Below, in pieces: positions 3,101-30,100 of a stretch of 64,000 nucleotides of DNA. Each line of letters starts with the position of its first letter. Position 1 is the stretch's first letter. The translations under genes were made by a program, and so were the position numbers. Origin of the DNA: Phoronis australis (Eukaryota > Animalia > Phoronida); NCBI GenBank assembly GCA_002633005.1, contig NMRA01000136.1:708944-772943 (forward strand), written 5' to 3'. The notes beneath the pieces are model-generated. The model was not told where the DNA came from, made no database searches, and was given only the letters and a program-made list of their open reading frames with translations.

Positions 3101-6100
3101 AAAAGCAAACAACGACCGAACTTATCAAAAACGAGGTAGAACAATGAATGACTCAAAAGCTCTCACAGTCAGAATATAATGAAAAGAAATTGGCACGAAA
3201 CTCTTGCCTCCCAGAACGTCACTTCTGGAGTAGAGGACGAGAAATTAATCAAACTACGAAAAGCTGTTAATTAGGTGAAAAATGTGTCTGGAATAATCAA
3301 CGAACCTTATTTTTACTAAAAGTGACATGAAAAAATGTTGCCTTTGCCTTTAAGAATACAACATTGACAGCTAAACAGCATTGAAACCTCCCTGTAAATT
3401 CAAGTACGTACATACTAGACTTTGTTTCACAAAATTCTCTCTTACAGGAGGTGTCTGACCTTTACCTTCTGAAAAACACAGACCCTATCTTTGAGGAGTT
3501 AGAACACCACCAGATAGCGCTACAAGCTATGCAGGCCAGTAGCGCTGCTGGCTCATTCCTTGACGAAGTTGTCAAGTGGCAGAAACGGCTTCAGACAATC
3601 GAGGCGGTGATGAGCACATGGTTGAATGTTCAGGAGAAATGGGTTGAGTTGGAAGAGGTATAGCCATTGTTTATATTGTGCAGAGATGGGATAATCTTGT
3701 TATTAGAGATTTTTTGTCTGATTGCTGGGCAGTGTAATGAAGTGTTGAATTTTTAATGTATTATTACAAATACATGAGTTGTAAATGGGGGATTGGCATA
3801 CTGTGAAATAAGAGACAGTGTATCAAATTATTTCAGGGTCTTGTGTAAAATCTCTGAACTGAGATTCAACTCGAAGTTTTACCACTCACACTGCATGATT
3901 CAAGTTTATTAAGTTCAGTCAAAGTGTCACATGTACTTGGTCAAATATCAAGTCGAGTTTTGAGTACAGAGATTGAACCCAGTGCCCTGATCAGTGGTGA
4001 GAATTTTTATTATGTAATGTTCTGGTCTTAATGAAAACATTGGCCTTTGGTACCATAGCCTGTGAAAGTTTTGTATTTGATTTTTTTTGCATTTTGTTCA
4101 AATTAAGATCTTTCTCACCAAAAAGGTAAGTTATGCATGGGACCCTATGTAGAAACCATTATAATAGTTAGCATTTCCCTATCAGTACAACAGACACTGA
4201 AGTATGACCATGTTGCTCCTTGTATCATATTTTTATTAAGACTACTGATGATAAGCTCATTGTACTAACACTACTACGTTTTAATGCTTACTAACTATTA
4301 ACTAATCTAGTTCCTCTTCCCTAGCTAGTTCAATTGTCAAAGGTATCTGGGTGGTATTAGATGTGGTGTCATTCTTTGAATATTTGTTTTCTTGATAACG
4401 TAAATTGTAGAAATTAATTTAGTAAGTCATTTCTTTTATGAATTTGTGCAAAATCTGGCATGTTTTGGTCAATGTTTGTCTGATATTTCTAGTTTGTGAT
4501 ATTCCTATACATCATTTCTCTTTTTAATTTGCCAGGACGTATAGGCAGTAGGTCATTTTGCACTTTGCATGAATTACACTGTCGTCTGTTGCACCCAGTT
4601 TGCAGTCTCAAAAACAAATTTATAATATATTTTTGAAGGTGTTAACTTGACAAGTTTAAATTTGAATATTTTTATGTAAGCTTATTTGCAATGTGTACGG
4701 AAATTGCATGCAAATCCTGTTGTACTATGCAAACTCTATATCTACAGCTGAGCTGTTGTTTTGAGAGGGAAAGTCTGATGCACGCAGTGTTTTCATGAAT
4801 ACCTGTCATGCTACTGGGTGTTTCTTGATTGTTAGTTTACACATGCGCAGATAGGTGTCTCTTGTTAAATATCACTGAACATGCAAAAGTATTTTACTAC
4901 ATGTGATCTTTTCTTATATCACAATTGAAATCACTCTGATACTGCACCTGTATTGAACGCAGTGCTACTCTATGTGGTACTCTGACATAGTGAGTTTCAT
5001 CATACACATTAGGTTCGTCCTTATTTCCTTTCCCATATCCTGTCACATCTAGTACAGGTTTGTAGAATATTTTGCTTTTCATTGGCAATGGCGTGCTCAT
5101 ACTTCTTTTGTCAGATTGCTTCTGAAATTTTCATGTCGTGCTCATGTTTTGTACTCAGTCAAACAAGGGTAAAACAAAATTAATTTTTTTGAAGCATTAC
5201 CTTAATATGTGATTCCCTGCTTGATGGTTATGCTAATGACGATATATCTACCATTACACACCATAATTTTTCTTTCTGTCTCGCCCTGTCTTACAGGTGT
5301 ATAGTGGTGCTGATGTCCGCCACACCCTCGCAAGTGATTCCAACATGTTCGCCAACACAAACCGCGACTTCCGCATGTTGATGCAAGCCACGGAGAAAAA
5401 TCCTAATGTTCTCCAGTGCTGCTCAAGAAAACGTAAATATTTTGTTGAATAAACAATATTTAAAACTATTGGAAGTTTGAATAACCTGTTGTACTTTAAT
5501 TTCTTGTAATGAAAATTCAGCCTAAAGAAATCAATAAATTAATCACTGTTTTAGTGTAATGTAGCCTGAAATTATACAGAGGATAGAGATAAACATTTAT
5601 TGGCTGAAATTCATTTCCATTTTGTTCAAGAGCATATCCTCATATTTAAGCTGTGTTTCATCATTTTGTAACATATCAAATGCTTTCGCAATTTTACAGC
5701 TCTTTCATTTATAGTTGTCCTGTTTGGCAGGCAGTTGCAGTCTGATTAACAGGAGGTCTCCTTTTGATCAGGTGTTGATACTGGCAAATTTTCCTCATAA
5801 GTCTAGAGTAGTTTGGCAGTGGCGCTTCTCGTTTGCACAATTTGTTATCAATACATTACAGTTACTTAATCTTTGAATGGACACTAGCCTCTACTTCTGC
5901 TATATTCATTTTTATTATTCGTCTGTTCTCCGAAGAGCAGGAATAGAGTATTTAACAAGTGTAAACCATTGGGTCCATGATTCTTGACTATAACTACTGG
6001 CTTACACTCTGAGTGGGTTGTGACCAAGTGTGACCTGTTGATGTAATTGTTAGCCTTGTATTATCTTATTTCTGGCTGAAGATGAAACGTGACCAGTCTT

Positions 6101-9100
6101 GAACTATAGCCGACTTCTTGTATCAGTATCCCTTCAATGTCTGTTGCTGATCTATTCAATTCTTGCTCTTTGGGTGACTTACAAGTATTCCAGGGGTTCA
6201 AGCAAATGTCTGTGAAATAACATATAGACAAGAATGTCATGTAGTCAAGAAAAACCCAGCAAATGAGAAATTTCCATATTTGTAACAGTAACTCTCGACC
6301 ACTTCTTTCACACACCCACTTCATTTCACACACCCAAATTATGAGGCAAAATAACTTCCTGCCATTTGATGGAAATTTACTTATAAGCAGTCACAAAATT
6401 CCTTAAAATTTAAACATTTATGACTGTGAATTCACATACAGTCACTTTAATGTTTATTCACAGATATTCTGGCTATACTGGAGAAGATGGATATCAATCT
6501 GTCACACTGTCGACGCACTCTACTGAATCACCTGGAGAGAAGGAGACAGAAGTTCCCACGATTCTACTTCCTGTCTATTGAGGATGTACTACACATTGTT
6601 TGTAATGGTATGTTCTCGTATTAGCGTAATTATGTAATTTAAGTTGAACATTCACTGGTTGCCATTAACTACATTCAGTAAAATTGACATTATTGATTGT
6701 ATGGCTGAAAAAGTGCAGTTATGGGCTTATTGTAGGATGGAATTTTTGAAATTATTAGATTGACTAGAGCTATAAAACAACAAAATCCACTTTGTTTTTG
6801 TGATTATGTTATAAATTGGCTTATTCTCACCATTGTGTGCTAGACATTCACTGACATCAAGGCAAGTGTCTTAACCTGCTGCTTAACACATAAGATTTGG
6901 CTCAGTGGTAGAATGTTCAGCTGCTGCTACTGGAGAGCTATTGGGCTCGATTCTGCGTGACTGCAAATGTTTGACAACTACTTGTTTCAGTGAAAATGTC
7001 ACCCTTAAATTAAAGTTATTCTTTAGCAGGTTTATGTTAATTTGCATTGTGTGACAAGATGAGTGCAGATAATTCAGAATTTAAAAATTTTCAAATAAAA
7101 CCATGCAGTCAAGCAAAATGACATGTCTGACTGACTTTTTGACTTTAGTGTGCTTTAGTTTTGAAAAATGCAATGAGCTTTTTCATCTGTGGAAAAGAGT
7201 TTGTTTGACATGCAACTCATCTTGTTTTGCGAACAAAATCAAGATGTTAAATTTCAACATTGCGTTTGGCAGCCATTTTGATTTTTTTGATCTAATCAGT
7301 AGATTGTCACATTCAGTAAGCCTTAAGTCACTTGTCTTAAATTAACTTTACTTTCATTACTCATTACACCTGGACTGCTGCTCATTTATTTCCTTTATTT
7401 CAAAGTGTAGGCTACAGTTTCACTTAAAATTTATTGCCTGTCTTCCGAATGTTGCACTCCCCCATTGGATTATGACCTGAACCAGGTGAACCTCTACATC
7501 AGTAAACTGTTTAATGCACTCCCCCTTTAGGCTATGACCTGAACCAGGTGAACCTCGACATCAATAAACTGTTTAAATGCACTCCCCCTTTAGGCTATGA
7601 CCTGGACCAGTTGAACTTCTACATACTGTTTAATGCATTCCCCCTTTAGGCTATGACCTGAACCAGGTGAACCTCTACATCAGTAAACTGTTTGAGAATG
7701 TTGGCAGAATTGTGTTTGATGAGGTGGAAGACAATGACAAATACAACTTTGAGATCACGGCAGTTCAGAGTTTTATGGGAGAAAGACTTCTGTTCAAGCA
7801 GGTAACACATTAGCCTTGTGAGTCATTGGTTATTGCAGTTAGCTTTCTGCTATTGCTGCCAAATGTGTGCAATTGTTTTGTTATAATTTTAAATTTGTTT
7901 TAGCATGTCTGGATTTCCTGTTTTGCATGTTCACTTTTCTGAGCAAAACGATATTATCTTTAAATGCCATATTCTGTGTGTTTCGTAAATTATTTGCTTT
8001 TTAAAGTCATTTGTTCTAAACATGACTGCATGAAAATGAGATTTTATTTTTAAAATAGCTCAGAACATGAATATTGGAATCTTTGAAAATTCGTAGTAGG
8101 TGGACTACAAATTGCTGCTTGACAGATCGTCAATCAGGTTGATAGCATGAACCATTTGTTAGATGACTGGATGAACAACAATATGAATGATGCAAAAGCA
8201 TGTCGCATGTGATATTGTTTTTAATAGAGTGGTTACCGCCATAACCAAGTCATACTGTCCATTTTCCTATACCGATATTGCCTATTGCCTATAGTTTTAC
8301 TAATAACTTGATAACAACGCTATTTACAGCCTGTCCCGTGCGAGGGTAACATTGAGACATGGTTGAACCACTTCATCCAAGCCATCAAATCAGGTTTGCA
8401 GTATCAGCTGGCGTTGGCCATGGGTCTCGAAAAACCTCCGCCACCCAAGGTGAGAGAGATTCGTAGTGCTGGTTCACGCAAGGTTGTCATGCAGAAGACC
8501 AGCGGCAGGGATAGCAATCTATCTAAGAAAGGTAAACTCTGCAATTTAGTAAAAAAGCACACTTGTCTACTAGATGCTAGCATAAAAAAATAATGCTCTC
8601 CTGGTTATAAGCATAATAAATCCTCTCTTGGTTATTAGCATATTATAATAAATTCTCTCCTTGTTATAAGCATAATAAATGTACTCTTGAGTGTAAGGCA
8701 GCATAATTAATGTACACCGTCCTGTGTATTTCCGTGTGGTTTTGATTTTCCTTTTGATGTCTGTTTTGCGTGTTAAAAATGTGTGAAGAATGTCAATGGT
8801 TTCTGAAGTTATTGGAATCAACCCTGTTTCTGTTTTACATAATATTAGTTGAAAAAACATGGAGTTTTTCTCAATAGACATCGCCCAGCTTTATGCTGAT
8901 GGTGGGTTAGGGAACAATTAGGGGAACATAGTTACAGAGATTTGGACTCACTGATAGACATAATTAAGCAATACTTTATATTTGGCAACTGCGCTCATGT
9001 GTGAACTTTTAATACAGTTCTCTTGCATGGAACTTGTATTAGTTTTGTGTCATTCCTGATAGGCTATCGTCTGTAATGAACTAGAGGAAGTACCACATTT

Positions 9101-12100
9101 TTATCTGATATTTGTTTCATTGGTTGTGAAAGCCTTCAACCTCCAATTGAGTTAATACAGCTTTCTTGCCAAACTACATTTTGACTAGATTGTAATGTCT
9201 TCAATTACCATACTGCATTTCATAGCAATTGTAATTAAATGTGACTGAAAAAAACCAGCAACCATTTGATATGCTTGTTTGTGACTACTGTTGCCAATAA
9301 CTGTCCTGTATTCAAGAATTTCATCCACAGAACGGAGCAGTAGTCGCCAAGGTAGTAAACCAGGCAGTCGCCAGGGCCGGCATTCTGGAACCAATCAGCA
9401 GTTGACCTCTGAGCCAGCTGAGTCAAAGTCTCTGGGCAATGAGAACACAGGCTCCTGGACTCTTGATCACGTGACAGAGATAGTATATCTAGCTACGTTG
9501 ATCAATATGACTCATCAAGTTGGAGAGTCTCTGTCAGTGACAGATTCCGGTGATAAAGATGCCATTCAGGTCAGTAGGGACTGTGACATATGCTCCTCAT
9601 TAGAGCTAAGGCTAATTGCTACTCTAACTGACCTATCGCCAGGATTATGACTGATGGCTTAACTGACCAATCAGAACGCAGCATTCTTGAAGCACCTACT
9701 TAGAGCTGTATCCAGTCGGGCAACTTGACCCATCCGTGCCAAGTTCCACTAATTCAGTTTATTTCCACACGGTCATGTGTGCCCTATCCTCTTGTTCCTG
9801 GGGCAACTTGCACTAAAAGTGCCTCCCAGGACTCAACTTAGGTATCAGATAAGTTGCCTACCAGTAGCCACTAATTCCCATATCTGATGGTTTTGTCCAA
9901 TGAACGTAAACAATAGGGGCTTGGTGACCTGTCTCCACTCCAGTATACCAATTGAAGTTTACAGCACATTGAGCCAAAACGTGACAAAGTGACAAGACTG
10001 CACCAGTCTTCTATTTGTGTTCATGTTCAAGTTGTGGTGGATTATTTGCGTCATTAAATAATAAAATTGTCCTCTTTTTGCAGACTGCTGTAGCCAAGAT
10101 CAATGCCAGCCTCCAACAGAGTGTGTTGATGCTAAAGGGACTGGAGGGAGAGAAAGAGGTTCGACAGAAGAAGTCAAAGTCACTGAGTGATGGTCAGTAT
10201 ATGGGGGGGTTGTGTGAAACTGTGGATGAATATTGTCGCTTGTATCACTTTATGAATGATGTCTTCTAGTGTGACCAACCAGAAAGAAGAAAGAGGGTTG
10301 CGGCTCCTCGCCATTTGGAGGTGCATGTCACCTTGTAGAAGATGACATTTGTCTAGTGATAAATCTGCAGGATTTTTATTGGATTTTTTGTAGTTCTATC
10401 ATTTTCTGTGAAGTATCTGTTGTGTATTAAACATACTTAGTGAATTTCACCTGGTTGTGTTCTGACTTGTGTTTAAGTGCGCTCTGCACGTGAAGCCAAG
10501 GAAAAGAGTGAGACCTTGTCAGAGAGTGCCTCCCAGTATGGTCGTGGGAGCCAGGCTGCTTCTCATGTGGGATCCATGTATGACCTGAATATGGAGAGCA
10601 AATCTCCCATACCTGAGGAGTCTGCTACTGATGGTAATGGATGTAAGTGCACAAGTTTAACAAAACGTTCTNGTGCATGTCACCTTGTAGAAGATGACGT
10701 TTTTCTAGTGATAAATCTGCAGAATTTTTATTGGATCCTTTGTAGTTCTATCATTTTCTGTGAAGTATCTGTTATGTATTAAACATACTTAGTGAATTTC
10801 ACCTGGTTGTGTTCTGACTTGTGTTTAAGTGCGCTCTGCACGTGAAGCCAAGGAAAAGAGTGAGACCTTGTCAGAGAGTGCCTCCCAGTATGGTCGTGGG
10901 AGCCAGGCTGCTTCTCATGTGGGATCCATGTATGACCTGAATATGGAGAGCAAATCTCCCATACCTGAGGAGTCTGCTACTGATGGTAATGGATGTAAGT
11001 GCACAAGTTTAACAAAACGTTCTCGAGAAAGTTTGTTGAAATAGGAAACCAAAGTGTCTTTGTCCTGACACAGTTTCTAATTCTGGTGTGGATGGTAGGC
11101 AAAGTTGATAGGAACGAATGTCAATTTCTTTAATTTATTCATGACATTTGATGACATGATGGTTGCAAACAGTGTAAAATATACTGAGGAATTTTCTTAG
11201 TGCATTAAATCCATACAAAGATCCAAACTATATTCATAAAATTACTTATCACTATCTAGTGACAAGGTGTATTTGACACCGCTGTGTCATCAATTAGCGA
11301 TTTGTCTCAGTTGCTTTTTCAAAGTTATTGTGGGAACTGACAAGGAAATCAGAAGAAGATGTAATAATTTGAAAATTATGTGACATTTGGTCAAACGTGT
11401 CATTTTTTATTGTAAAGATGTTAATTCTTTTGAAACCACACAATTATAAAACTGTATCATACTTAGTTCTTCAAGTTTTCACACAAGACGCAGCCTGTCA
11501 ATGAATCAATACAATCATGCTTTCTAAACCTATTCTGACTATAACCCTTGGTCTCTCAACTAATATTAATTACTACACAGCTTATTGATATTTAATGCTG
11601 ATTTCTGACATACTGTGTGTCTTATGATGTTGCTTGACATATTATAACCGTTCTCATCCAGCTTTAGTTGAACCAACAACTGCAGAACCTGTGGACACCA
11701 TGAACTTGATGAATAGCATGTCTATTGTGACCAGCAGCAAGGCCAAGGATGAAGAGGTGAGCTCCTGACAATGGATACATAGTATCATTTAATGCATTGT
11801 TTCTTGACTGGAGAACTAACAGTTACTGTAGTTGGTCGAGATAGGGCAAAATAGTGCTTAATTCTGGTAAGTGGTGATTGGTTCACTAGTAAGACCATTG
11901 TTCTGTTTGTAAGTGGTGATTGGTTCACTAGTAAGATCATTGTTCTGTTTGTAAGTGGTGTTTGGTTCAATAGTAAGACCATTGTTNAAGTGGTGATTGG
12001 TTTGTTAGTAAGACCATTGTTCTGTTTGTAAGTGGTGATTGGTTAGCTAGTAAGACCATAGTTCTGTTTATAAGTGGTGATTGGTTCACTAGTAAGAGCA

Positions 12101-15100
12101 TTGTTCTGTTTGTAAGTGGTGATTGGTTCACTAGTAAGACCATTCTGTTTGTAAGTAGTGATTGGTTCACTAGTAAGACCATTGTTCTGTTTGTAATAAG
12201 AAATGCAGAAATAGTTCAACTTATTCTCACTGTGTCATTGAACACTAAACCAATGTTTCATGAGGAGAACCGACTCTGTTTACAGGTGACTTCACGAATG
12301 TTACCTTAAGTTTATGAAACAAACAACTAGTAACAAATTACAATGACATGTCTAGCCAGAAGTCACCTTCATCCATTGTACCTGGCCCAGATGTCGCCTT
12401 CATCCATTGTACCTGGCCCAGATGTCACCTTCATCCATTGTACCTGGCCCAGATGTCACCTTCATCCATTGTACCAGGCCTAGATGTCACCTTCATCCAT
12501 TGTACCTGGCCCAGATGTCGCCTTCATCAATTGTACCTGGCCCAGATGTCACCTTCATCCATTGTACCTTGCCCAGATGTCACCATCATCCATTCATTGT
12601 ACATGACCCAGATGTCACTGTCATCCATTGTACCTTGCCCAGATGTCACCTTTATGCACTGTACCTGGATAGACTAAAATGTTACATGAGATGTCTTAAT
12701 ACACAGTCGTAATATTTTGCAGGTGATTGAAGATGACGTGGATGAGAGTGAACTGAAACTGATGCTGTTCCCCAGCCAGATTCACAAGATCAGCTGTGTG
12801 ATCTCACTGTTAGCCCACCAGAGGGACCTATTACAGAGGCTGGCACAGTCTGCTGACAACAAGGGACTAGTCAACTCATTTGAGTGGCGCTCTCAGCTGC
12901 AGTATTCAATGGACAATGAGAATCTGAGCGTGACTGTGCAGGTAAGGGGCTGGTATGAGAAGGAAATACATTGTCTTCCACTAAGCTTATGTGTGATGCG
13001 CAGTATTCCTGGCTTACTACGAGAAAGTGTTACGTCAGCTTTCTAACTTAGTGAATGTTACAATAAATCTCATTTTTTGTAATAAAATTTATTTGGGACT
13101 GCAACAGACATTTCTGCTGTTGTTGCTCATAATTTTTTCTTTAAAATTTCAATTTTTACACATTACCATCAATACCCAGAAAAGGTTTCCTCAAACTTGA
13201 ACTGCAAATTTAGTAGAAAGAAATGTGGGATTCCAAAGTGTAAAAGAAGAATTATAAAGTGTTGAAAAATGTACTGTTTTTTCAGTGAACCGATCTTATG
13301 AGCAGATATGTGTTTATTGAATACTGAATGAAAATTTTGAGATTGAAATCTTAATTTTGCATTTTCATATTGGTTTAAAATATGTTTTTTTGGTAATTGT
13401 TCACCTATTTTGCACAAAAATATTTGCCAAAGTTGTCATTTTTCAAAAACTAATTACCTTGTTGTAAATAATGGAATGTTTACCAAATGTTGGTTTGTGA
13501 CATCTACCGTGACATCTACAGTGCTCAAAACAAGTGAATAGTTATCTAAAATCTATTTCACCTTAAGTTTATTCTTATTGAAAATATTGACCGAAAGTAT
13601 TGTTTGCTAAACAGGTGAAGAATTACGGCAATTATAATGATCACATGGCTTCTTTTAATTGTTTATGACATCCTCCGCCTTTATCTATGTCTAGTGCCTG
13701 GATGCTCAGTTTGACTATGGCTATGAGTTGTTTATAACATCCTCCACCTTTATCTATGTCTAGTGCCTGGATGCTCAGTTTGACTATGGCTATGAGTACC
13801 TGGGGTCATCCAACCGTGAGGTCATCATCCCTAGCACAGAGAGAGCTTTCCTCAGTCTGACCCAGGCAGTCAAGGCACACTTGGCCGGGCTGTGTATGGG
13901 TCTACCTGGTAGTGGTAAACTGTCCACAGTGCATGAGTTGAGTCGCTGTGTTGGAAGAGCACTGTATACGTTCAACTGTACCAGTTCCTACGACCATGTC
14001 TTGCTCAGTGACGTGTTCAAGGGACTTGCTGCCACAGGTGTGTACAAATTTCATTGTTTTGGTATTCTAAAATGTGACAGGTTTTGCTCAAAACTGTGTA
14101 TGGAATAGAGTGTTTAATATCACAATGCTGCAGTATTGCCTTTGCCTAAAGATGTAATATAAGATCATATGCTAATAAACGTAATGATTACTCAATGAAA
14201 CTTCATTTTCTATATACAATATCATGTTTATCATGTATAATGTACATATTATCTGTTTGTCTCAGTGGCAGACGGAATCCTTTTCTGAAACTGCTTGTGC
14301 CTCTTTGAACAAACTGCCTGCTCTTTAAGTGCAAGTTAGGCTTTTTTATTTGATACCTTGAAAGCGCTCCCATAACTGCTTCAATCAGATGATCTTAGTG
14401 TCCAAAAGGTTCCTTTTTGTGAAGCAATTTCATAAGGTTTTGCATAGAAAAAATTCATGATTTCATGCCGCCTTGTACATTGTACATTTCAAAATGCCTT
14501 GAAGCCTGCATAATGAGGAATTACGCTCTTAGTAATTAATAGTCAGTTTATTGTTGGTATATTGTTGAAAGACTATAATGTTAAATTTGGCTGTTGTTAT
14601 TTATTGACTACCCAGAATAGTGTCTAATATTCTAACCATTCAACAAAATGTTCATTTCAGGCTCCTGGGTTGCCTTCAACAACATTCGCCACATGACAGA
14701 CTCTGTCCTCAGTGTTCTTGCTCACTTGCTCTCCCGCCTTCTGGATGCCATGAGAGAGGGCAAGGCCACCGTGAATTACGAATCCGAGGAGTTGACCTTA
14801 TCCCCCGTGGGAGCATGCTTTGGCATTCTCGACAGTTGCATTGTTGCTCCAGCCACAGGACCGGAGCGACTTCTGTTGTTCAACTCGGCAGCTACATCAA
14901 TACCACCAGTTGTGTTGAAACAGTTCAGAGTTGTCTCTGTAGCAAAACCAGACCTCAAACTTATGGTGGAAGTTCTTCTGTTGAGTCAAGGTAAATGAGT
15001 GCTTACATCAAACTGAGTGACATTTTCACCTTAAAGAATACTGTAAAATTTCTTCAATTTTGGATAAAAACTAAAATATTCCTAAGGCTCACGTTTTTCA

Positions 15101-18100
15101 AGTACATTGCTGCACTCTGCTCAAAATTTCCCAGAATTGCTTTTCAACATGTGAACTTTAGTACACAAAATTATTTTTTGTTGAGAATTTTGAAGTTTGT
15201 CCCCAGCATTGTGCTGTAAACTGGAGAATTTTTACCTTAATATTATGTTGCATCTATGGCTTAAGTCGACCTTTGAAGCATTAGCAGTTGTTGTTGGCAG
15301 TGTCACAAGAGGAATGACAAATCACATTAACCCTGTCTGGCATCACCATTCATTACTTATAGCCACCACCATGAGTATGAGTGATTAATATTTCACTTTG
15401 TACATGCAGAGTTCAAGTTCAAGTGTATTTTTCCAACAATGATACATTAACAGACGGACTATATCTAATAGCCAAATGCAAGTTTCAATCCTTATTTTCT
15501 GTTGGTGCTGATCGCCACATTTTACTTGAAATTCACATAACTTTTCTCAACCAAATTTAAGCAGGTCACAAGGTTCTTTCCTTGTTAAAAAGTAAATGAT
15601 CTGAGCCAGAAGTTATTAGTCCTATTGATTTAACATGGATTGCTTGTGTCAGGCTTCACCAATGCCACTGAGCTGGCGCACAAGACCAACCTGTTGTATG
15701 ATGTCTGTCGGAAACTGCTGAGTACGACAACTGTGATTAAAGAAGAGATGAAGCTGGGTGCAGAATGTAACGAGGGACAACATGGTTGGAGTGTGCAGAC
15801 TATGAAGTATGTCAGCTATGAGGCTGGAGCTTTATTGGACCAACTGGTGTGTAAGGCTGTGGAGGTCAAAGGTGAGTTGTAAAGGTCAAGCAGGGGTACT
15901 TTTAGGGTCAACATATGGCTGGTGCAACTCGCTGTGTAACTAAAAACTACCTTGGTGTTGAAATGTCAAGTGTAGGAATAGATTTGATTGCAAAAGGATA
16001 CTGCAGTTATTGACATCTAGATTACTAGCAGTGCACAAACAAGGCTGGATAAGTCATCCCTTGGACAAGTGTGTTACGTTGCCGGGTAATGTTGCATACT
16101 TTATGTGGCACTAGCTGTCTAATTTCTCAATGGTGCTGTTGCACTGATCAAACATGCTATGAACTTTCAATTACAATCAACTTCTATTAACAGAGAATGT
16201 GTTAGATGATGAACCAAGTGAAAAGCATGAAGTTGAAGACCAAGAGAAGGGTGAGTGTGTGTGTCGTCTTCAGTGGCTGCAACCAACTGTAATAAGTTCT
16301 TATTTATTGGTGTCAGTCACTGAAGCCACTGTTTATGTACTGTCTTATGGGATGTACCCATGTCGTACTTTTTAATGATTGTGCTGCACTACAAGACAAA
16401 AGTAATCAGACAATACAGCAACAGTACAAGGTAAAAGTAATCAGACAATACAATATACAGTACCAGACAAAAGTAATCAAACAATACAGCTACGGTACCA
16501 AACAAAAGTAATCAGACAATACAATATACAGTACCAGACAAAAGTAATCAAACAATACAGCTACGATACCAAACAAAAGTAATCAGACAATACAATATAC
16601 AGTACCAGACAAAAGTAATCAAACAATACAGCTACGATACCAAACAAAAGTAATCAGACAATACAATATACAGTACCAGACAAAAGTAATCAAACAATAC
16701 AGCTACAGTACAAGGTAAAAGTAATCAGACAATACAATATACAGTACCAGACAAAAGTAATCAAACAATACAGCTACGGTACCAAACAAAAGTAATCGGA
16801 CAAAATACCGTTTCCTTGTCATGACAGCTAATTCTGGTTACAGCAAAAACGACTGGTAGCAACCATCAAGGCCTAGTTACAGAATGGTTTATAGCCACCT
16901 TAATTCCCCCCTCATTCTTGGTCATAAAGAAGGACTATTCTGACATTGAATGACAGGCAATTCCCTTTCATTTTCTCTCAATACTTTTGGCTTGCACTCT
17001 ATGTCTAAGACATGAAAATTCATGCTAAATTCACTGGGAAGTTTAAGAAATTGAGGTTGCATTTCGCTGTACAGTTTTCATTGTAGCTTTAAATAGTGTT
17101 TACCTTACGTGTTTGATTGAATCTAAGATTTTTTTTACTTATTATGCTAGTTCTCAGTTGAAATTGAAATATGCAAGATGTGTTTCATTCTGTTGAATAT
17201 ACATTAAAGTAACACAGTTTGGAGAAAGAGAACAACACTTAATACAGCTGTGTACAGTATGTGGTGTCTCAGCATGGCAACACAGCCTTGGATAGTAATC
17301 TCGATGACAATCTGCAATTCAATTCTTCTTATCACATTTACAGTCAATGGTAGAAAGTATCTGCCTAAGCCAGAGGAAATGAAAACGATGGAGGACCAAG
17401 CCATGGTCACTGCCCTGCGTAACGCCTTCATGCCCCGCCTGTTGGACAAAGAGGGTACCATCTTCTCCACTCTCCTTGATGACTTCTGGCCTGACACTGA
17501 CGTACCCATGAATTTTGGTGGCGCCCCTCCACAAACAGATGTGTTGATCGATTCGCGGGCTCTGTCTAAGCTCACTGGAAAATCCATGTCAGCTGTTAAG
17601 GGACACTCTCAGAATCGAGATCACAGTTCGCTCCATCCAACATCATTTAGAGGTGGGTTAAAACTACATAAAATCTACCTATGCCAAAACCACGGTCCAT
17701 TATGTATATATATATGTATATGTATGTAACTTGTGCTGAACTACCAAGACTTCTTTATATCATAACTGTATGATGGCTTAATAAAATTTCCATTTCATTA
17801 CCTTGCCGCTAAATTTTGCCATTGTTCCCCATCATGTTGTCCGGCTGCACTCAGCTGTCATGATGGAGTTCTATTGGCTCTCAGCCATCATTACAGGCAA
17901 TTACAGGTACTTTTGCCATGTACAGTATATGGTACAAAAACTGATGTAAGTTGTAAACCTGCTTGGTATGTTTTGATTTTTACATTGTGGTGATCTGTTG
18001 TATAACTTATGAATGGTAGTTACTTCTTTCAGATGATATGTTTAAAGTTATCATTGATACAAATTATATCCAAGTTCAATTAACCATCCAATTTTTTTAC

Positions 18101-21100
18101 ATCTTTGTTTACTTGTTGGATGCATAATAATGCTGTAAGTATAATTAATTTCATTAAGTTCAATCTTTTAAGTGTTTTGTTTCCTTTGCATGCCATTTCA
18201 TCAGTAACTAGTATTCTTTACTTTTTGTTGTGCTACAACTTTCGTTTCAGTTGATTTTAGTGAAATTCTGATTTTTGGTTTCCCAGACAATTACAGTTTG
18301 GTGTTGTAAAAGAATTCTATTCTTATTTAAATATCTCTTAGTAACTAATTGTTAGTTATGAGTAGTTTACCTACCCTGTTCTCTGGTTTTGATCACCTGA
18401 CCTCGGTGGCTAGCATATATTATATTGCCTACTGTTGATTTCACATAAATCTGTATTCTCTTTACTTCGTAAAATGCATAGTCATCAGACTTTCAATTTC
18501 CATCTAACTAACACTCAGTGGAAGTAGTACAAAACACAATTTTTCCAAACAACCAAGTTTAGTGTGAGGAATTAGCTGAGACTCATAGCTGAACACATCT
18601 ATCCCCAGACTGTTATACTTCAGCAAGTCTTGAACTCAGTCATATCTCAGTGAAAACTCTAACACTCTAGTACTTCACTCTTCTTTGACCCAAGAAGGAA
18701 ATTAATGCAAGCAAACTGTGCATACATTTGGAGACTTGATTTTTTGCAGAAATGGGAATCAGTGACAATTCTGCCATGTATGACTAGATATTTTTAATGC
18801 AATGATTAGAAGGTTGTTAATTTTGTGCGTGTACAGACGGCATATCTTAGTGAAGTGGTTATTGTCATTTTATTTTTGCAAACATCCAGTTATTAGTTTT
18901 CGTTACAAAATTCTACACTTGAATGCCTCATCGATGTCATAAGGTGTTATTCTGTCTGCTTGCACTGTCTTATGTTGCCATGTTTTATGTTATTCCAGAA
19001 TCCCTCCATTTAACCCTGAACACTCCGGTTGTCCGTTTACAAGGGGGTGCCGCTGGCAAGTACACAGCCTATATCGATGATGGCGACAAGCAGCCAATAG
19101 AAGACATCAACGATGCCATTGCCGTGGCAACGTCAGAACTTAATCTGATGCCAGGATCTTCATTCCAATCGAGAGTCGCACAGTTATCTCATTTGAACAC
19201 ATCTCATCAAACGGTATTTGTTTTGTTTGTTGTTTTTCTTCTTCCTGTTACACCAACATTTGGTTTAGTGATGCTATCGGTGGATATCACTTATAGTTAT
19301 AAATACAGGGATTTTGTATGATGGTTACTGTAACAAAATGCAGGGAGTGCAAATTTGAGCAATAACATTGTAATCTTGGATACCCCATGTTGTTAACTTT
19401 AGAGTGGAATGAAGCCACGGAGAGAAATCACAGTTTCCTCATGAACTGTGATTTATCACACATTGGTGCTTTTTCTTGGATAGAAATAACATGAACATCG
19501 ACTTGAATGACCTCTTTATTTTGTTAAAGATCTTGTGACATATTTCTTTAGAATAGTCGTTTTGTTTTGGTGGTGGATCATTTTGTCCAAAATTGATGCA
19601 ATTTTACAATACATTGAGAAATTGTTAGATTATCTAAACCAATTTAACAAGTTTATAAAACAAAATTCACTTAATAGTGTTAAAGAACTAAAACATCATG
19701 CAAATTTTTAAGTTAAATTAGAAATTTACGATAATTGTGTTATGGAATTTTTCCACTAATTATTGCTAATTTTGCATTAATTTTCAGATTGTTGTTTGTG
19801 GTCCTTCTGGATGTGGAAAGTCTGAATGTATCAAGACATTTGCTGTGGCCGAGAGGGAGAGAGGCAAGACAATCAACATACAGAGTATCTTTACCAAGGC
19901 TGTGGAGACTAGGGAGCTCTTGGGTTACACTGATCCTCAGACAAAGTAAGTCACCGTGGAGACCAGGCAGTTTGGGCTATACTGATCATCTGGGGCAGAT
20001 TAAGTCACTGGAGATCACACAATTCCTGGTCTATGCTGATCACCATGGACTGATTAAGTCGCAGGAGACCAAGCAATTTCTGGACTAGTGATCATCAGCA
20101 AGAGCCACTGTAGAGATCCAGACATGTCATGCAGCTATTCTGAATTTAGTTAAGGAATAGAATCTATTTTCAGTAGCAATCTAATGTACAATTTGTTTGT
20201 AAGAATATCCGCTCACTGACAGGGCTTGTTGAAAAAATTTCAAAATGTTTCACACTGAAAATTACAGCCATTGACGACGGTGTTTAAGTCTCTTTGCTTA
20301 CTCAGCTGAATTTTGAATATAACTTGGAAGGTTGTTATGAGATTGCACTTAATAAACATTTCTGTATTTTCCTCGAAGGTCTGTGTTTGAATCAACATAA
20401 ATTTGTGAGTTTTTGAGTTTGCATATTTGATAACCAGCAAACTCCTGCACTAAACCATTGCCTTCTAAATGTTCCCATTTATCAATTATAGAGAATGGAA
20501 AGATGGTGTATTTCCATCTATGCTGCGCAAGTTCTGTGTCCAGCCTTGCAACCAGACTAATGACTTGGTAGCCAAGGCTGAAATGAAGGTGATACTCTTA
20601 GATGGCAAGGTAAGAGTAGAGATTGTCTCTCTAGCTGTATGAGTGACTTCAAGTACTTGTTCCTGGTATTCTTCTGATTTTATTGGTTAAGCCACATTAG
20701 TGAGCTAGGGTAGAGGTAATAAAAACAATGTTGTAGCTTAAATGGACTGAAATATTTGTCATGAAATTGAAAAGGAGGCTGAACTAAGCTTTGATTGGTT
20801 ATAATCTGAACAAAAAGTCAAAGTTATAAACTGAAATCCTTTACCCATGTTCAGTGACATTTTACCACAATTCAAAAATTGATAAGTAAAATGAAAGTCA
20901 TTGATTGGTTGGATTCTGTTCTCTATCACCCTGAATTTGCTTTACTTGCCAAATGATTTTATTGAATAGTATATTAGGTGACATTACTTTGTGCATGTAT
21001 TGGTCCAATTTGTTGACAAGTTAGTTTGTCTTCAGCTACATATTTTGCATGTATTTCCTGTTCTCATTGTCTTATCTTAGTTCTTGACTTATTGATCTCG

Positions 21101-24100
21101 CAATATGGCGGACAAAGAAATTCCATTTTGTAAATTTCTCTTCAAAACTAAAGATTAAGAACATTTTAGTCTAATGCTAGCATGGAGTGTAGTGTGTAGG
21201 TGTCATAAAGTAACATTGCTGAAACTCCCATTATTTGTTAAAAGGTAATCAGCCTTTGAAAAATTGAAAAAAAGCTATATTGTGTCACATGAAGTGAAAG
21301 CTACTAAACAATTCCTTTATTCTCAAGATATTGTAATGTAATGTTTTCTCTGCAATGGTAAGTTGTTTTTAACATTCCTTGACAGTTTGACCCCGTTCAG
21401 CTGGAGCTCATGGAGAGCATCCTTCACAACGACGGCTCTGTAATCCTGGCCAACAATGAGCGCCTTCTAGTGGCAGACACCATGCGCTTTATCTGGGAGC
21501 TGGACTCACTGGACCACATCAGTCCCTTCATCCTCACCAATGTTGGCCTGTTGGCAATGACGCACCAGGATGCCAACTGGAGGCTCATGTTGACACACTG
21601 GTTAAACAACCAGCCAGATGGTGGGTGCATGAACACGGCATTAGCTTAAGTGGCAGCTTCTCATTAAATCTTTGAATAAATTATGTAAATTAACTTTGCC
21701 TGCAAACAATCCCTAGCCTGTAGAGGAGCCTGCCACAACAATTGAGTAATTGAGGATGCCAAATTCAAGACATCAGACAGTTCAGTTTCAAAATTTTGTT
21801 TACTTAATTGTAACCTTTTAGAAATGCTTTGACTTTAAAATGAAGACCTTTTATGTAATATTTAAATCTTGTTCATGTAAGATTTTTGTATCATATTGAT
21901 GGGAGCTATGGTTTTCTTTTGGATGAGAAGTTTGTGTTATGTTGTCCATGCCTAGGTAGTCACTGGATAGCTCTCATTTGCTGAATATAGGGTTTCAGCT
22001 TTAGTGGGCCCGTTATGACTGTTGTGAAGCTATCTTCGATCAGTTTTTTCCCTCACCAGACGTATGAGTTGTCTCTGTGCGAGTGTTTATGGTAATAGAT
22101 TTCATCTGGGCTACTGTGTGTTACAGACATCCGTGAGGTGCTCCAAAGTTTCTGTGAGGTGTACGTGGAGAAGGCCTTACACTATCTGATGCAGTGTACC
22201 CGACCACCCATCGCTGGTGAGCACCAGGGGGCCAAGACGATGCCGCACTACCAGAGACTCATCTCACACTCACCTGAGAATATGATCACCACGTTTTGCA
22301 ACCTCATGGATGTAGGTTAAAGCTAACGTTATTGTGTCATGTGTATTCACCTGTAAGACCACCGTGGTCACATGACCAGCGAGAAGTGTCTCCTGCACAT
22401 TGATTGTGTTACACTGTATCATATTTATAACTCTCATGGAATGTTTCTCATCACTATGATCTCTACATTTAAGCAAAATTGGCCTGGTTAATATGCCTGT
22501 ATTTAATACATTATTTCTAAATTTAGATAAAAAAGTAGCCCAAACAATACTATGCTTGCCAAATTGAAGCTGTCTTCAAGTCTTGTTACATAAGTGTCTG
22601 TTGACTGGACAAGTATACTTTCTTACCTGCCTTACTAAAAGTTAAGTTCTGAGATCTGTGTAGTTTTCCTGTCAAATTCTGTTCATTGTGGATAGAAATT
22701 GCTAGGTCAACACATGGTATTTTAAAGATGAGAAGCATGGGTTTGGAGAGTTTGTACCTTGATATGACTTTTTAGTTTTGCTGTTTATACTTGTTCAGGG
22801 TATGTTTTTGTTGAAAATGGAAACAATTATGGAAGTTTTGAAAGCTTTTTGGCAGTTGCTCAAGTGTAAGTCAATCAGATTCATATATTAAATATTCTCT
22901 GTCTGGTTGAGATTCAGTGTGAAGTCTCAAATGGTATCTTTTGACACCCTATCAGTTTACAAGCTTGTATTGTTTAGTTAACCTTATATTAGCCATTTTT
23001 ACTTGATTTTTAACAGAATTTTATAATGCTTTTATACAATAGGAAAATAATGAAATCCTAGTCTACTGCCAGCCATTGTGTCTTTCACTACTCTTAGCAT
23101 TCATCATCACTTCAGTGTAGGGTTGATTGTTCTGTAGGCTTTGACCGGTCACCTAGACAACCTGAGTGATGTACAGCTGGAGAGGTACTTCAACTACGCC
23201 TGTATCTGGTCATTTGCTGGTACCCTTGACTCTGAGTACAGGGATCACTTCAGCTCCTGGTGGAAACAAGAGTTTGAGAAATATGTCGATTACCCAGAGA
23301 ATGGCACAGTAAGAACTACAATATAGTCTGGACTTTGTGTTGTGTTAATTAATTGAATGTATATACGTGTGTTGCCCAGTGTCATTTGTGGTGATGTCTG
23401 GTTGAACAAAATTTAGATATTGATAGTGTCAATGTACTGCACCAATGTTAATCTGATAAATTTTGTTGGGGTTATAATATAAGATTCATGAGTTGATTCT
23501 GAAAATCTTAATTGACTTGGTAAATTGATCATTTTCATAAGCTTATTCATGTCATTTATATGGAACTGGCCGCCATGAAATCGATAATTGACAGATGGTC
23601 ATATTTGTTCGTATAATTAACCATTATCATCAGCACCACCACCAGATTCAGGGTTTGATTGATATTTGATTTATATTACAGGTGTTTGATTTCATGGTGG
23701 AGGGAGAAAACCATACTTTTGCCCACTGGAAGAACTATGTGTCCCCTTACAATGGAACGCCTCATGCAGGCATACCTACTAATGCTTTCGTTTTCACTGT
23801 CGAGTATCAGGTAATCCACCGTTAACTATTATAATAGTTCTATGCTGATAAATTATGCAAGCTTTCTCTAATTAATATGTTATATCAACTGCATGTTAAA
23901 GTGACAGTAAACCTAGTATTGCTTTCTGACAAAAAGTAAGTGTTGTTTTAGGCCACTTACTGTTTTAAAATTGATCTCAAATTGTTGCTTAGTAAAATTT
24001 GAAGTTATTTCAGGGCTTCAAATAAAATCTGACGATTTTTTATTGCTTGAGATCAAGCTTATTACATTTCAGGCCACATTGCAACCTGAGATTTTATGAA

Positions 24101-27100
24101 CTTTTTGTGAAGAAGTCATGAACTGTCAGTTGTATAAACTGACAATATAATGCAGCAAGTAGCCTAAAGTCAAAAGTTGTTTTTGACAGAAAGCATGTGT
24201 TTAATACCGTTTTAATAAATGTAATATGCTATGTACCTTGTAAAAGTGTCTTTAATAAAGACAACTAATGCAACAGTTGTATGGCCACTTTTTTCAAACT
24301 CATCTTTTGCATGGAATGAGGCAATACTCATTTACGAGGGTCGCAGATTTTAATAATGAGTTTGATACTCACTATTCAGTGAAGAATACAAAGTCGCAAA
24401 ATGCGGGACCCCCGAAAGTGATGGTTACGCGCCATGAGGACACATGCGATTAAGACAGCACTGACCAGTCGCATTAATTCGAAATTTGTGCATTCCACAT
24501 TGACTCTATGCATGCAGCTCTTCATGTTAAAACCTCCAGCAATACAAAATAAATGTCCACGAAGGCAATACAAATGACAAGGCACACAAAATCATGAGCT
24601 GTTTGATGTAATGTTCTGTCTGTGTTTACAGCAAGTCTACCACATACTCAGTCTGTTGTCTGATGCTGGTAAACCTATTATGCTTGTTGGTGAGCATGGC
24701 TGTGGCAAGTCCTTGCTGACTATGGAGCGGATACAGGCTGTTTGTGGAGGGGAGGTGGCTGAAGTGCTCTCACTGGTTGTCAACTGTAATAAGTATGTAC
24801 TAGGCTTTGAATATGTGGTACTGTGCACACTAAGTCGCGCATTTTTGGCAGTGCTTGAAGGGAGATTGCGATGGACATTGTACCGGTGATTCGTCATTTT
24901 GTCACTACACTGATAGCATATTGTCTGTGGTAAAAATATTATATTTTGTATGAATTTAAAACTTAGGTTCCATGCAATTTTATTCCAGTATACAGGATGA
25001 TTTAGTTTTGCAATAGAAATATTTCTTGATTACTTTCACTCGTTGTGATTGTATTGCTAAATTTTCAACTTAACCTGCATGTTTTTGTTTTGCTTCTAAG
25101 TTTGTTTCCTTGTTTATGCATGAATTACATTAAAGGAATATAAAGTATAAAAAATTCTCCAAATATGTCACTTGTCAAATGTGCTGTTGGAATTGATGAC
25201 ATTTTCATAGCATATTGTGTAACACCTTATCTGTAGGTTCACCAATGCTCGACTACTGTACAACCGAATGGACGAGAAGTTGGAGTGGAAACACGGCCGG
25301 ACCTACGTACCCAAGGGTAACAAGAAGCTTATGTGTCTCATTGATGACCTGAACTTGGCACAGGTGAGATGTGTGTTACTTTCTGTGGCTGTTAACTGGC
25401 TGAATTATGAAAACTATCAAGATTAATGGTGTTTCTGATAGCATTGTAACCAAAGACGATGATTTGTACTAGGTTGGTTCATAGGTATGTTTTTAATGGC
25501 TTTGTCAACTTTTTGTGTTATCTCATACATTTTTCCCACAGGTTGACAAGAATGGAGACCAGACTGCTGTTGAGCTTGTCAGGCAACACCTTGATGAGGG
25601 TGGTTTTTATGATGTCGACTCGTTCTCGTGGCGATACGTGAGGAATGTCAGCTACGTCAGCACAGTGAACCCTACCAATAGTGGTTCTACACCGAGACTG
25701 AGTCAGAGGCTTCTCCGACATTTTGCATTGTTTGGGGTGCCTTATCCGCAGTGAGTAGCATTTTATCTTAATTTGTAACTGTGGTAAATTTTAAACATAA
25801 TTGTGACTTTATTAATTGACTACTTTGTTGAGAGTTGCTTTTAGCGAATATATGTTCTGTTATATTGCTTTTGGTTCCTTTTACTCTGAAATGCCTTATA
25901 ATTTTAAGCCATTGACATATTTGTTTCAAAATAATTGTTATATTTTTATAGCAGTTGCGGTGATCAGAAATATCTGCATTCATTGATATTTTATACTTTA
26001 TTATTTTATGGCACGCTGTAATTGGGCAGTGGCTTCAGGTTATGTAGGACCTTAATAAACGACCTCCACTCTAAGTCAAATATCGGAAAAACTTTTCAGT
26101 AAAATCAGCTGTGGGATTATGTTTTGTGAGTGTACCTTTCTTACACGGGAAAATTTGACTTAAAAAATGTGGTCGCGTGACAATAATAAAGACATAGTAG
26201 CAAGAAGCATATATTTTTAGAGTCCTCTGTCTTTCTCCTTTCATAAAATAATACTTTTAATGGCTGACAAAGCATACAGTTTTTTGATATTTGAAGTCGT
26301 TTACTAAGGTCCTAGATAACCTTAAATTTTACTTCTGGAATTAGAAATAATGTGAATAAAAGACTGTTAAACAGTGCAGTTCAAATGTTGGGATCTCAGC
26401 ATGCATCTTGAATCATTAACGTGTGTTCCAACTACAGGGCTAGTGAGCTGCAGACTATCTTCTCCACCCTGCTTCAGACTCACTTCATCACACCTGAGAT
26501 GACCTCCACTGTCAACATCAGTGCCCCAGCAGCACAGCACTTGGGTATACATGATGAGAAGGTGAGCTATTTGTATGGACATAATGGAATGATCTCATAC
26601 TCATGGACTAAGTGGGATGCGTTTTCATACACATGGAAGTTGTAGGATGTTCTCTTACACGTGGGCATATTGAAATGCGCTCATATATAATTATGGACAT
26701 ATTAATGAGGTGCTCTCATACATGTACAGGTAGTACATATTAATAGACGGGATGCTCTCATACCCATGAACATATTAAGCAATGCTCTCCTAAACATGGA
26801 CATAATGGGATGCCCTAATACACATGGACATAGTGGGGTGCTCTAATACACATGGACATAGTGGGGTGCTCTCATACACATGGACATAACCGGATGCTTT
26901 CATACACTTGGATATAATGGGGGTGCTCTCATACACATGGACATAACCGGATGCTTTCATACACTTGGATATAATGGGGGTGCTCTCATACACGTGAACA
27001 TAGTGGGATGCTCTGATACACATGGACATAACAGGATGCTCATAATTAGACATAATGGCATGCTGTCACACACATGGACGTAGTGAGATTCCCTAATACA

Positions 27101-30100
27101 CATAGACATAGTGGGGTGCTCTCATACACATGGATATAGTGGGGTGCTCTAATACACATGGACATAGTGGGGTGCTCTCATACACATGGATATAGTGGGA
27201 GTGGTTCCGTTAGATCCACATGTATTCACACACACACCAGTGGCTAGGATTTAATTTGAACGAGTAACAACTGCTCATGCAAAAATAGCCGTGATCTTGA
27301 AATTCACCAAAATTAATTAATGCTTAATGTTATGAGGAGAATATGACTGTTAAAAACAAATATTTTGTTGGTTTTAATGGTTTGAATAGAGCATGAATTT
27401 AAAACTGTTTCACCATAATCTCTCATACATCGGTATGATTTTGGACATTGTAAACTTGCTGTATTGTATGGATTGTATTACTATTGAAACATTAGAGAAT
27501 GCCCAAGTTTGTTAGGAATGCCTATTGAGAATGCACTATGTCAATGTTTTGGTGTGGTTAGAATTAGCGTAACACAAGAGATTGTTTGAAGATTTGAAAC
27601 ACTGCAACAGGGTTCTAGTTGCACTATTGTACAGGTTGTGTTAGTGAGTCTTAATTGCTTAAAGGTAACGCGTGACTCAAGTGAAGATGCTTTCTGTTCT
27701 TCAGTGCACATAGGCAAGATCGGTGCTGTCTGATAGATATTTGCCAAAAACAGATTATACAACTCCTGCTTGTTTTAAAGTCCTGCGCAGTGCTAACTTA
27801 AACCAGGGTTGAAAAGTTTAAACTTAAATAAAATAAAGTTAATTGTGGCCATTTAGAGTAATTGGAATCTCTAACTTGCCTTATTAAAGAACCAAATGAA
27901 ATAGGTCGTCAAGAAATCAAAATGTTGCTTTTAACAGTTGGTATACTCTTAGTAAATACTGGTAGTGTGGCGTTACCATGACCACCTGCCTACTCTAAGT
28001 TAAGGTATAAAGCATATTCAGTAACAAGTGATCAACTTCTCCGTTAAATGAGGACAATTTGAGCTTGGTGGTCTGTCTCCACTCTGGTATATTAAGGAGC
28101 TGATATTGGATTGGGATTGTCCACATGTAAGGATTCATCTCAAGACAAGTCTTGGCTATGGCTTTGGTAATTCATGGCTGCATTATTTCTATATTTTGCT
28201 CCTCAAACGTTTGAAATTCCTTAAATTAGGATTGTGTAATAACTGAACTTTTAAGTAAACACAGTGCACTGTGTTTGTACATGCACAGGTACACTTGCAA
28301 ACACCATCTTCACTTAATCTCACACTCTAAGCTTTACTTATCGACTCAAAAGGTGAAAGCCATTCAGCTATTACACCCATCAAGCCGTGGACTAGCTGTA
28401 GTTATGCGGTCAAGTGATCAGTGTGAGTCTGAGTGGATTAAAATGAGAAAGGTGAACAAAGGCATAGCTTGTTGATTGCTTGCTTGTTGAAAATTTTGTT
28501 GTTGGAATATCACATTGTAGAAAGTTGGTTTTGTGTTACTTTGTAAGAGATGAAAAACAGTCTGGTTAAAACCTTAGAAATACCATTCATGCAGCACGTG
28601 AACCAGTGATGTGTACAATCTTAATGGATGGAATAACTTTATATAGATTTTGATGATATCGAAGCTATGTAATTCTTTCCAATCACTTACTTTTTAACAA
28701 ACATTTAAACCAAAACATTGCTTTGTAAGCCTTTCAAACTGGTCTTTTCGTGCCATGATGGTATGTGCTTCATCTTTTAGTTGTGGTAATAGAGAGCTAA
28801 CCTTTGATGGAATTAAAGTGATCAAATTTGAAAATACTGGTGAGCCCTATGGTTTTCTGAAGCTTTTTACTCTCAAGTAACCTGAATTCCTATCCTGAGT
28901 TCAGAAACAAAAGTCCTATCCTGTTAAGGAAAATTGGAATCTGATTTTGTAAGATTTTTATTTTGTTTTTTGGACAGCTCAACTGAAGAAATTACAGCTT
29001 TAAATGTGAGAGATAATGTGCAATTAACAATATTTTACATATAATCCTGTCAAAATATTAAATTTGAAGCCCGGGGAATGTTAACTCTTTCACAATGCTT
29101 TTTGTCAGTTCAGCATATGTTACTTACTACAAAAGGTATTTTGGAATTTTAGGTCGATTTCTAGAAAAATGAAATCATAAAGTTTAAATAACAATTTCTC
29201 AAATGAGATGTGTGATGAAGTGAGCAAGCTACAGAGATAGTGTCCAACCCAAGTAAACTGCGTTCCCTCTCCTTTCAGTTTTCATAACTGTACTTATTGG
29301 TCACAAGTCACCTGCACATTGTCAGTCCCAGTTCAGACTCATGACAATTTGGCATAAGCTTTGATGCCACAAACTTAAAGAAAACTTACAGCAATTCACC
29401 CAGTGTAACTCACGGATTGTGTGACTTGCTCATAGTATCTCATTTCCAGTTTGTTTTCATAAAATAGATTCCAAATACTTGTAAGATTATTGAAATATGC
29501 CAAATTGACTAACAGTGCCTTCAAAAAAGCACCATTCCCTTTTAAGTTGTCGTTTGTCCAACAAAATCCCTACAGACTTGATATAGTACACGCTACAAAA
29601 CTCATTTTTTGTCCAAGAGGAAGATCGAAACCATGGAAACGCAACCAACAGTTCTTCTCTGCCGGGCTACATCTGCACAACATTCTGGGTTTGGCTATTC
29701 CAAACCAAAGGGGGTAATAAAACAATTATTTCCTCAGCCAGTTCCATAAACCATGTTTGCCTACATGGGCCACCTAGGACAGTTGTATGACTAAAAGAAA
29801 GGCTCATAAATAACTACTTTCACTGACCTTCATGTCAGTTTCAAAAGGCCTGTTGTGTGTGAATGACACTCTTGAGTTACTGTACCTCCAAAATTCTAAA
29901 TCTCATATGGGCTTGTTACCCCCTACAAGCCCACAATGAATGTCAGTATCATTTAACCATACTGTTTTCCTCGAAGCTAACTCACTGTTCACATTGTGTG
30001 TGTGCCAATTCTAGGATGATGAAGAATGGAGGGTAAGATTGAACAGTCATGGTTTGTAGATGTTGTGACTCTGGTAGTAACATTGCTGTTCTGTAGCTGA

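Follow-up and report, generated by a model that had tools for sequence, protein, structure and literature searches.

A dynein heavy chain gene fills most of a 64,000-nucleotide stretch of the Phoronis australis genome (contig NMRA01000136.1, positions 708,944 to 772,943 of the forward strand; hereafter the window). We modeled this plus-strand, intron-rich gene as 63 exons and 4,304 codons without a stop. Exon limits were chosen by eye and then snapped to splice sites by script; where exons are repeated beside N gaps, a single copy was taken into the model. All 63 donors are GT and all 62 acceptors are AG, and the model is open at both window ends. A preliminary description of the same DNA had reported 62 exons and about 4,300 open codons with good splice sites. 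The open frame and the splicing stood up, while the count rose to 63, probably because of a 99-nucleotide in-frame exon inside AAA3 (28353-28451) whose 5′ joint is backed by 12 and 5 reads and whose 3′ end is deduced. The gene and the motifs of its main motor site, AAA1, are as follows.

2..62913, + strand: dynein heavy chain gene, 63 exons, 4,304 codons (gene model and RNA joints); the window lacks most of the N-terminal tail and the C-terminal extension
13785..13805, + strand: AAA1 N-loop YGYEYLG, kept (motif scan, orthologs)
13899..13922, + strand: AAA1 Walker A GLPGSGKL, lysine kept, threonine lost (PDB alignment, motif scan, 96-row alignment)
14666..14689, + strand: AAA1 Walker B WVAFNNIR, both acidic residues changed to Asn (PDB alignment, motif scan, 96-row alignment)
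14819..14851, + strand: AAA1 sensor I FGILDSCIVAP, Asn lost, with a class-wide 14-residue loop insertion after it (96-row alignment)
15781..15798, + strand: AAA1 sensor II HGWSVQ, Arg lost, with a class-wide insertion of about 15 residues before it (96-row alignment)
21521..21547, + strand: AAA2 arginine finger towards AAA1, SPFILTNVG, Arg changed to Asn (PDB alignment, 96-row alignment)

The five altered motifs related to AAA1 that the preliminary description had reported were all recovered where it had placed them, in one reading frame. For Walker A, Walker B, sensor I and the arginine finger, PDB alignments bear out the register against working dyneins. The alignment over Walker B and sensor I is weak by itself (E 0.16-0.5), the Pfam AAA_6 match has an E-value of 9.6e-9, and the 96-row alignment described below supports the register of all five. 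A six-frame scan of the whole window found no canonical AAA1 motif hidden in alternative exons; transcripts with other exons carrying canonical GKT and DE motifs were one of the outcomes that the description had named as counting against its own claim. Its wording that every catalytic motif is lost was too broad. Walker B, both sensors, the arginine finger and the Walker A threonine are indeed gone, whereas the Walker A lysine and the N-loop YGYEYLG are kept, so nucleotide binding may survive at AAA1.

The same loss is found across a clade of animal proteins. Our searches gathered 55 other dyneins and 40 long proteins orthologous to the model, the latter including fragments and a degree of redundancy, and we tallied each site in a 96-row alignment of the clade (the model plus its orthologs, 41 sequences) against the 55 others, leaving uncounted any row gapped at the site. 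The AAA1 Walker B glutamate is present in none of 37 clade members and in 50 of 54 other dyneins. The Walker A threonine or serine is kept in 2 of 35 clade members (54/54 in the others), the sensor I asparagine in 3 of 36 (51/54) and the sensor II arginine in 2 of 38 (52/54). The sensor I segment is 32-41 amino acids long in 36 of 37 clade members, compared with 23-26 in the other dyneins, and the segment preceding sensor II is 24-40 amino acids long compared with 15-16. As judged from this alignment, two class-wide insertions flank the AAA1 pocket. A structure predicted for AAA1-AAA2 of the Lingula ortholog (predicted local distance difference test score, pLDDT, 67.6) has the dynein AAA fold (Foldseek E 1.6e-38). 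Both pocket-flanking insertions fall below a pLDDT of 50 in it and the domain orientation is unreliable (template modeling score 0.36), so this model is uninformative on whether the pocket is occluded.

Orthologs came from a brachiopod, an annelid, a nemertean, molluscs, echinoderms, amphioxus, tunicates, sturgeon, gar, frogs and corals, and all named members are animals, as far as word-based searches, which are not exhaustive, can tell. They share 32-53% identity with the model, and the best other dyneins reach 26%. In a FastTree phylogeny of 95 rows (one fragment dropped) and 1,566 columns, the clade had support of 1.0, as did its join with the outer-arm beta chains; the nearest row to the model was Lingula. 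IQ-TREE, run on 26 chosen rows without AAA1, gave 100 both for the clade and for the clade plus beta. The tails of the orthologs had a beta chain as best match in 29 of 29 cases, with beta scores about 1.7 to 3.3 times the gamma scores. By these trees and tails, the clade derives from an outer-arm beta dynein. The ESM Atlas returned generic dynein clusters only.

The gene is transcribed and spliced. RNA evidence consisted of raw reads from three runs (X1, X2 and X3) bearing the same species label, and splicing was found in two of the three, which partly supplies the check on transcription that the preliminary description had proposed. Reads of X1 and X2 on exons share one orientation, consistent with sense transcripts. 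Between 12500 and 32400, at least 12 of 19 expected exon joints are supported, by 3-18 reads per run. The joint that links the exons of Walker A and Walker B is not among the 15 joint rows listed out of 27, and both exons carry reads. Between 55600 and 64000, all eight expected joints are present, one of them via a duplicated exon copy. Run X3 gave 24 reads in this interval compared with 344 and 276 in the two other runs, and expression therefore depends on the sample. Reads leave the last exon behind 62914 (17 and 15 reads) in frame into a further exon, and the sequence beyond that point, read by hand, begins like the C-terminal extension of the oyster ortholog.

Exonic read differences were synonymous in 24 of 28 cases, where 22-28% would be expected (P below 1e-9). 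The 28 comprise 10 from 12500-32400 (among 40 of 184 listed), 16 from 55600-64000 and 2 from the joint table. This shows that purifying selection acts on the gene. The unbroken frame, the splicing and the synonymous bias bear out the earlier view that the frame is intact and that this is not pseudogene decay.

The remaining features of the gene model are listed here.

1285..7801, + strand: linker region, exons 3-7, Pfam DHC_N2, about 60% identity to orthologs
8330..11756, + strand: low-complexity insertion separating linker from AAA1, exons 8-12; the segment has 413 amino acids compared with about 230 in working dyneins
19800..19823, + strand: AAA2 Walker A GPSGCGKS, intact (motif scan, 96-row alignment)
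24689..25354, + strand: AAA3 Walker A GEHGCGKS and Walker B LIDDLN, same as in working axonemal chains (motif scan, 96-row alignment)
33536..33559, + strand: AAA4 P-loop GDGSPGRC, degenerate (motif scan, 96-row alignment)
35959..38308, + strand: stalk, with the first coiled-coil strand (CC1), the microtubule-binding domain (MTBD) and the second strand (CC2), exons 38-42; length normal, CC1 proline displaced by 15 residues (exon 40 start)
38480..40313, + strand: acidic low-complexity insertion where AAA5 begins, exons 43-44 (gene model, segment lengths)
48020..48883, + strand: second acidic insertion, AAA5 region, exons 49-50 (gene model)
62624..62913, + strand: end of the C-sequence; past its donor, an in-frame exon beyond the window edge begins the C-terminal extension

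The P-loop lysine is kept at AAA2 in 40 of 40 clade members and at AAA3 in 41 of 41, and the AAA3 Walker B has the DD form in all 38 that could be scored. At AAA4 the lysine is present in 0 of 40, compared with 39 of 55 other dyneins. The stalk segment measures 359-361 amino acids in 35 of 37 members (359 in the model) compared with 358 in urchin beta, and at the stalk tip the helices, the length and the basic residues at aligned positions are kept. The stalk and tip predicted for the oyster ortholog (pLDDT 81) have continuous helices and match dynein chains in axonemal structures; both fold alignments, this one and that for Lingula, included one or two working dyneins. When domains were compared pairwise, the MTBD was the best-conserved domain in all five class pairs (62-74% identity, with 34-53% for AAA1L), and AAA1 was the best conserved in all three beta pairs (AAA1L 81-96%, MTBD 66-78%). 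On these pairs the order of conservation is inverted relative to working beta chains.

The preliminary description had guessed that the gene may belong to a known divergent group, and it fits one: the named but little-studied class 13 of Kollmar (2016, PMC5100056), which lowers the novelty as that description had foreseen. That study describes class 13 as metazoan, with a lengthened AAA5, a C-terminal extension of low complexity and a tail resembling that of class 4, and gives 4,800-6,000 amino acids for classes 11-13; the orthologs here have 5,200-6,100. All three sequence features are present. The AAA5 segment is 821 amino acids long in the model and 484-821 in 36 measurable members, compared with 339-418 in 52 other dyneins. 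A C-terminal extension of 184-731 amino acids is found in 29 of 33 measurable orthologs, compared with 6-35 in 46 others; of the four orthologs with a short one, three are of the cnidarian branch and one is a truncated record. The tails are of the beta type, as given above. Compared with that text rather than with Kollmar's sequences, the clade shows no feature that differs from the class 13 description, and we assign the gene to class 13 with high confidence, the class being set by descriptions and not by Kollmar's own sequences. By the same text, ATP sites and microtubule-binding sites were not analyzed in detail, and a class-12/class-13 heterodimer was proposed. The present analysis adds to it the dead AAA1, the loss of the AAA4 P-loop and the conservation of the tip. 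We found no paper stating that class 13 AAA1 is dead in the literature searched, whose coverage leaves out subscription journals and book chapters; non-motile dyneins as such have been described, namely DNAHX (PMC11785096) and, by prediction, DNHD1 (PMC8754002).

The affinity to DNHD1 that had been suggested found no support. DNHD1 (class 11) resembles the clade in having lost the AAA1 Walker B residues and in its many insertions (the starfish row P0103 reads LNTNLN-like, without DE), but in the tree built without AAA1 it joins the single-headed inner arms, and it occurs in humans. In a starfish they are two separate genes, one in this clade with 45% identity to the model and one DNHD1-like with 20-28%; the tail of the second matches DNAH6. 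The DNHD1-like row lies outside the clade in both FastTree and IQ-TREE. Its union with the clade was rejected at the borderline in an approximately unbiased test without AAA1 (p 0.046), and over 535 columns including AAA1 this single row could not be placed. The tails settle the question, since they are beta in 29 of 29 clade members and of the unrelated DNAH6 type in the DNHD1-like gene.

DNAHX, the chain of dynein-X, is known to us by description. A preprint (Chai et al. 2025, PMC11785096) reports it as non-motile by cryogenic electron microscopy and DNAH8-like, with a disrupted stalk. Like the present chain, DNAHX is long and rich in insertions, has a degenerate AAA1 and occurs in aquatic animals up to frogs, and it offers the closest functional parallel for how the present chain may work; its own features are an origin of the DNAH8/5 type, a kept Walker B, insertions in the stalk and MTBD, and an AAA4S insertion. 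The present gene has a beta origin, has lost Walker B, and has a normal stalk and a normal AAA4S, the latter of 58 amino acids in the model and 56-60 in 38 of 41 members; urchin beta has 59. A degenerate AAA1 is thus common to the two, as far as the preprint describes it, via different changes. We rejected membership in DNAHX or class 12 on the intact stalk (359 amino acids), the missing AAA4S insertion, the beta-type tail and a motor that joins beta at 100 in trees built without a DNAHX sequence. That DNAHX is class 12 is inferred from the descriptions. P0064, considered as a stand-in for DNAHX because of its AAA4S insertion, was dropped; it lies among gamma chains in the tree and keeps GKT.

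The outer-arm beta chains themselves (class 4; DNAH9, DNAH11, DNAH17) are the sister or parent group in the motor trees and the best tail match. However, identity to them is about 25% and their AAA1 motifs are all intact, so a working outer-arm beta dynein was rejected: Walker A GKT, Walker B DE, the sensors and the arginine finger are not intact here. In databases the orthologs go under 'dynein beta chain-like', 'DNAH9' or 'DNAH17', and clade members or their 90% clusters (P0107, P0081, P0087, P0139, P0148, P0151) are labelled DNAH9 or DNAH17. The orthologs are misannotated under these names, and the labels mean that clade members can be hidden in proteomics.

Three other long-branch dyneins turned up in the search output (P0062, P0064 and P0102). 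AAA1 motifs are altered too in P0062, a mayfly chain near DNAH10, and in the gamma-like P0064.

According to published work, AAA1 drives motility, and hydrolysis requires the Walker B glutamate as well as the arginine finger (PMC6103457, PMC3704981). Since both are lost here, we infer that there is no power stroke, and AAA1 very probably neither hydrolyzes ATP nor drives movement. The maintained, non-motile dynein-fold protein of the preliminary description agrees with the spliced transcripts, the synonymous bias and the same loss from corals to frogs, its non-motility being read from sequence. An AAA1-dead head is considered to be a tether in a heterodimer (PMC3704981). The ring would stay folded, nucleotide at AAA2 and AAA3 serving as a structural cofactor. 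That the tip, linker, AAA2 and AAA3 are under selection points to a folded ring with a fixed shape, still able to hold a microtubule. Binding of microtubules by the stalk tip is likely, and a beta-type tail would place the chain in an outer-arm-like pair, as tether or brake; an axonemal location and pairing with a gamma-type chain seem similarly likely. Taken as a whole, we favor, with moderate confidence, a non-motile microtubule tether or brake, probably docked by its tail in a two-headed outer-arm-like complex of cilia or sperm flagella. A whole animal dynein class then appears to be a pseudo-ATPase that guards its microtubule grip, the mirror image of DNAHX, and cilia may use passive dynein-shaped parts.

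Several observations weigh against this reading. Of 35 clade members, 28 still have the AAA1 Walker A lysine, two corals retain GKT, and the arginine finger, present in 55 of 55 other dyneins, survives in 5 of 41 clade members (echinoderms, amphioxus); together these make ATP binding likely and slow turnover possible. The own tail of the P. australis gene lies outside the window, the beta-type tail being seen in orthologs. The CC1 proline has a role in stalk angle, and stalk prolines have been linked to direction. A conserved proline is described at the junction of CC1 and the tip (PMC3704981). In 34 of 37 members, 34 residues separate the CC1 proline from the first MTBD helix motif, compared with 19 residues for 11 of 16 others. 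CC2 is also longer by one residue in 35 of 37 members, and tip geometry may differ as a result of both shifts. Conservation of the tip could also serve a partner other than the microtubule.

Such a partner figures in the main rival reading, which we consider unlikely: the dead head would be a transport or assembly scaffold that keeps a working dynein closed, phi-like, for delivery into the cilium, with the tip making head-to-head or adaptor contacts. DNAHX forms phi particles with another chain, and the preprint's text has its authors propose a delivery role (PMC11785096); the displaced CC1 proline and the strong conservation of linker and stalk would fit a fixed shape. However, the DNAHX stalk and tip are described there as disrupted, whereas the class 13 tip keeps its length, helices and basic residues, for which track binding is simpler. 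It is distinctly less probable that the chain is a rewired slow motor or switch, in which ATP turnover at AAA3 (or at a residual AAA1) would switch microtubule affinity with no classical power stroke. Compared with AAA1, AAA3 is the better conserved, with Walker A in 41/41 and DD in 38/38, and it regulates release in dynein-1 (PMC6103457). Yet working beta chains have the same DD form, so it is no sign of a gain; the P-loop of AAA4 is gone, and it is AAA1 that motility requires (PMC6103457). Finally, a decaying duplicate heading towards a pseudogene, the 'ghost gene' view put forward for DNHD1 in the available portion of PMC8754002, is largely refuted and very improbable. No amniote ortholog turned up in word-based searches, which are not exhaustive, but 4,304 codons without a stop, spliced transcripts, 24 of 28 synonymous differences, and retention from corals to frogs with a fixed stalk length all speak against decay.

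The favored reading of a tail-docked tether or brake leads to a tentative but serious possibility, that class 13 is the second heavy chain of dynein-X and pairs with DNAHX, itself known by description. By the text of the preprint, DNAHX is paired with a second chain of normal stalk whose identity is open, and mass spectrometry detected two beta-type chains, 'DNAH17' (34.83%) and 'DNAH9' (3.18%) (PMC11785096). Purple urchin has one class-4 gene according to Kollmar's accessible text (PMC5100056), and its class 13 ortholog is called 'dynein heavy chain 9' in RefSeq. The ortholog of Lytechinus variegatus, the species of the DNAHX study, is XP_041471110.1; it shares 48.8% identity with the model over 2,712 amino acids and has the same dead motifs. 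Several points stand against the pairing. The text of the preprint consulted gives no accession behind 'DNAH9', and the RefSeq name of the L. variegatus ortholog differs. By the same text the authors favor a single-headed inner-arm partner, 60% of particles were monomers, and all other fits scored alike (PMC11785096). If the pairing is true, aquatic animals carry a fully engine-dead copy of the two-headed outer arm, DNAHX without grip and class 13 with a re-angled grip, and it would form a passive brake or spacer in flagella that was lost in land vertebrates. The question of the DNAHX partner becomes testable with existing data, namely the accession of the 'DNAH9' peptides and the 8-angstrom map.

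The window also holds repeats and an element that touch the gene model. Near-identical exon repeats lie beside single-N gaps at 10321-11023, 53411-55088 and 58133-59797 and are probably duplicates made in assembly; reads that jump back from 59255 to 58746 fit one real copy. An intronic element at 2014-3353 has inverted arms of about 330 nucleotides each, 84-91% complementary, around a 706-nucleotide core, and looks like a non-autonomous DNA transposon; a 194-amino-acid frame overlapping it gave no Pfam match. Tandem repeats at 13659-13797 (69 bp, two copies) and 7453-7693 (62 bp, four copies) repeat the acceptor together with the opening codons of exon 14 and of exon 7, respectively, and the upstream acceptor of exon 14, if used, would run into a stop. 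A coding 24-bp repeat of 3.2 copies (38807-38884) lies within the acidic AAA5 insertion.

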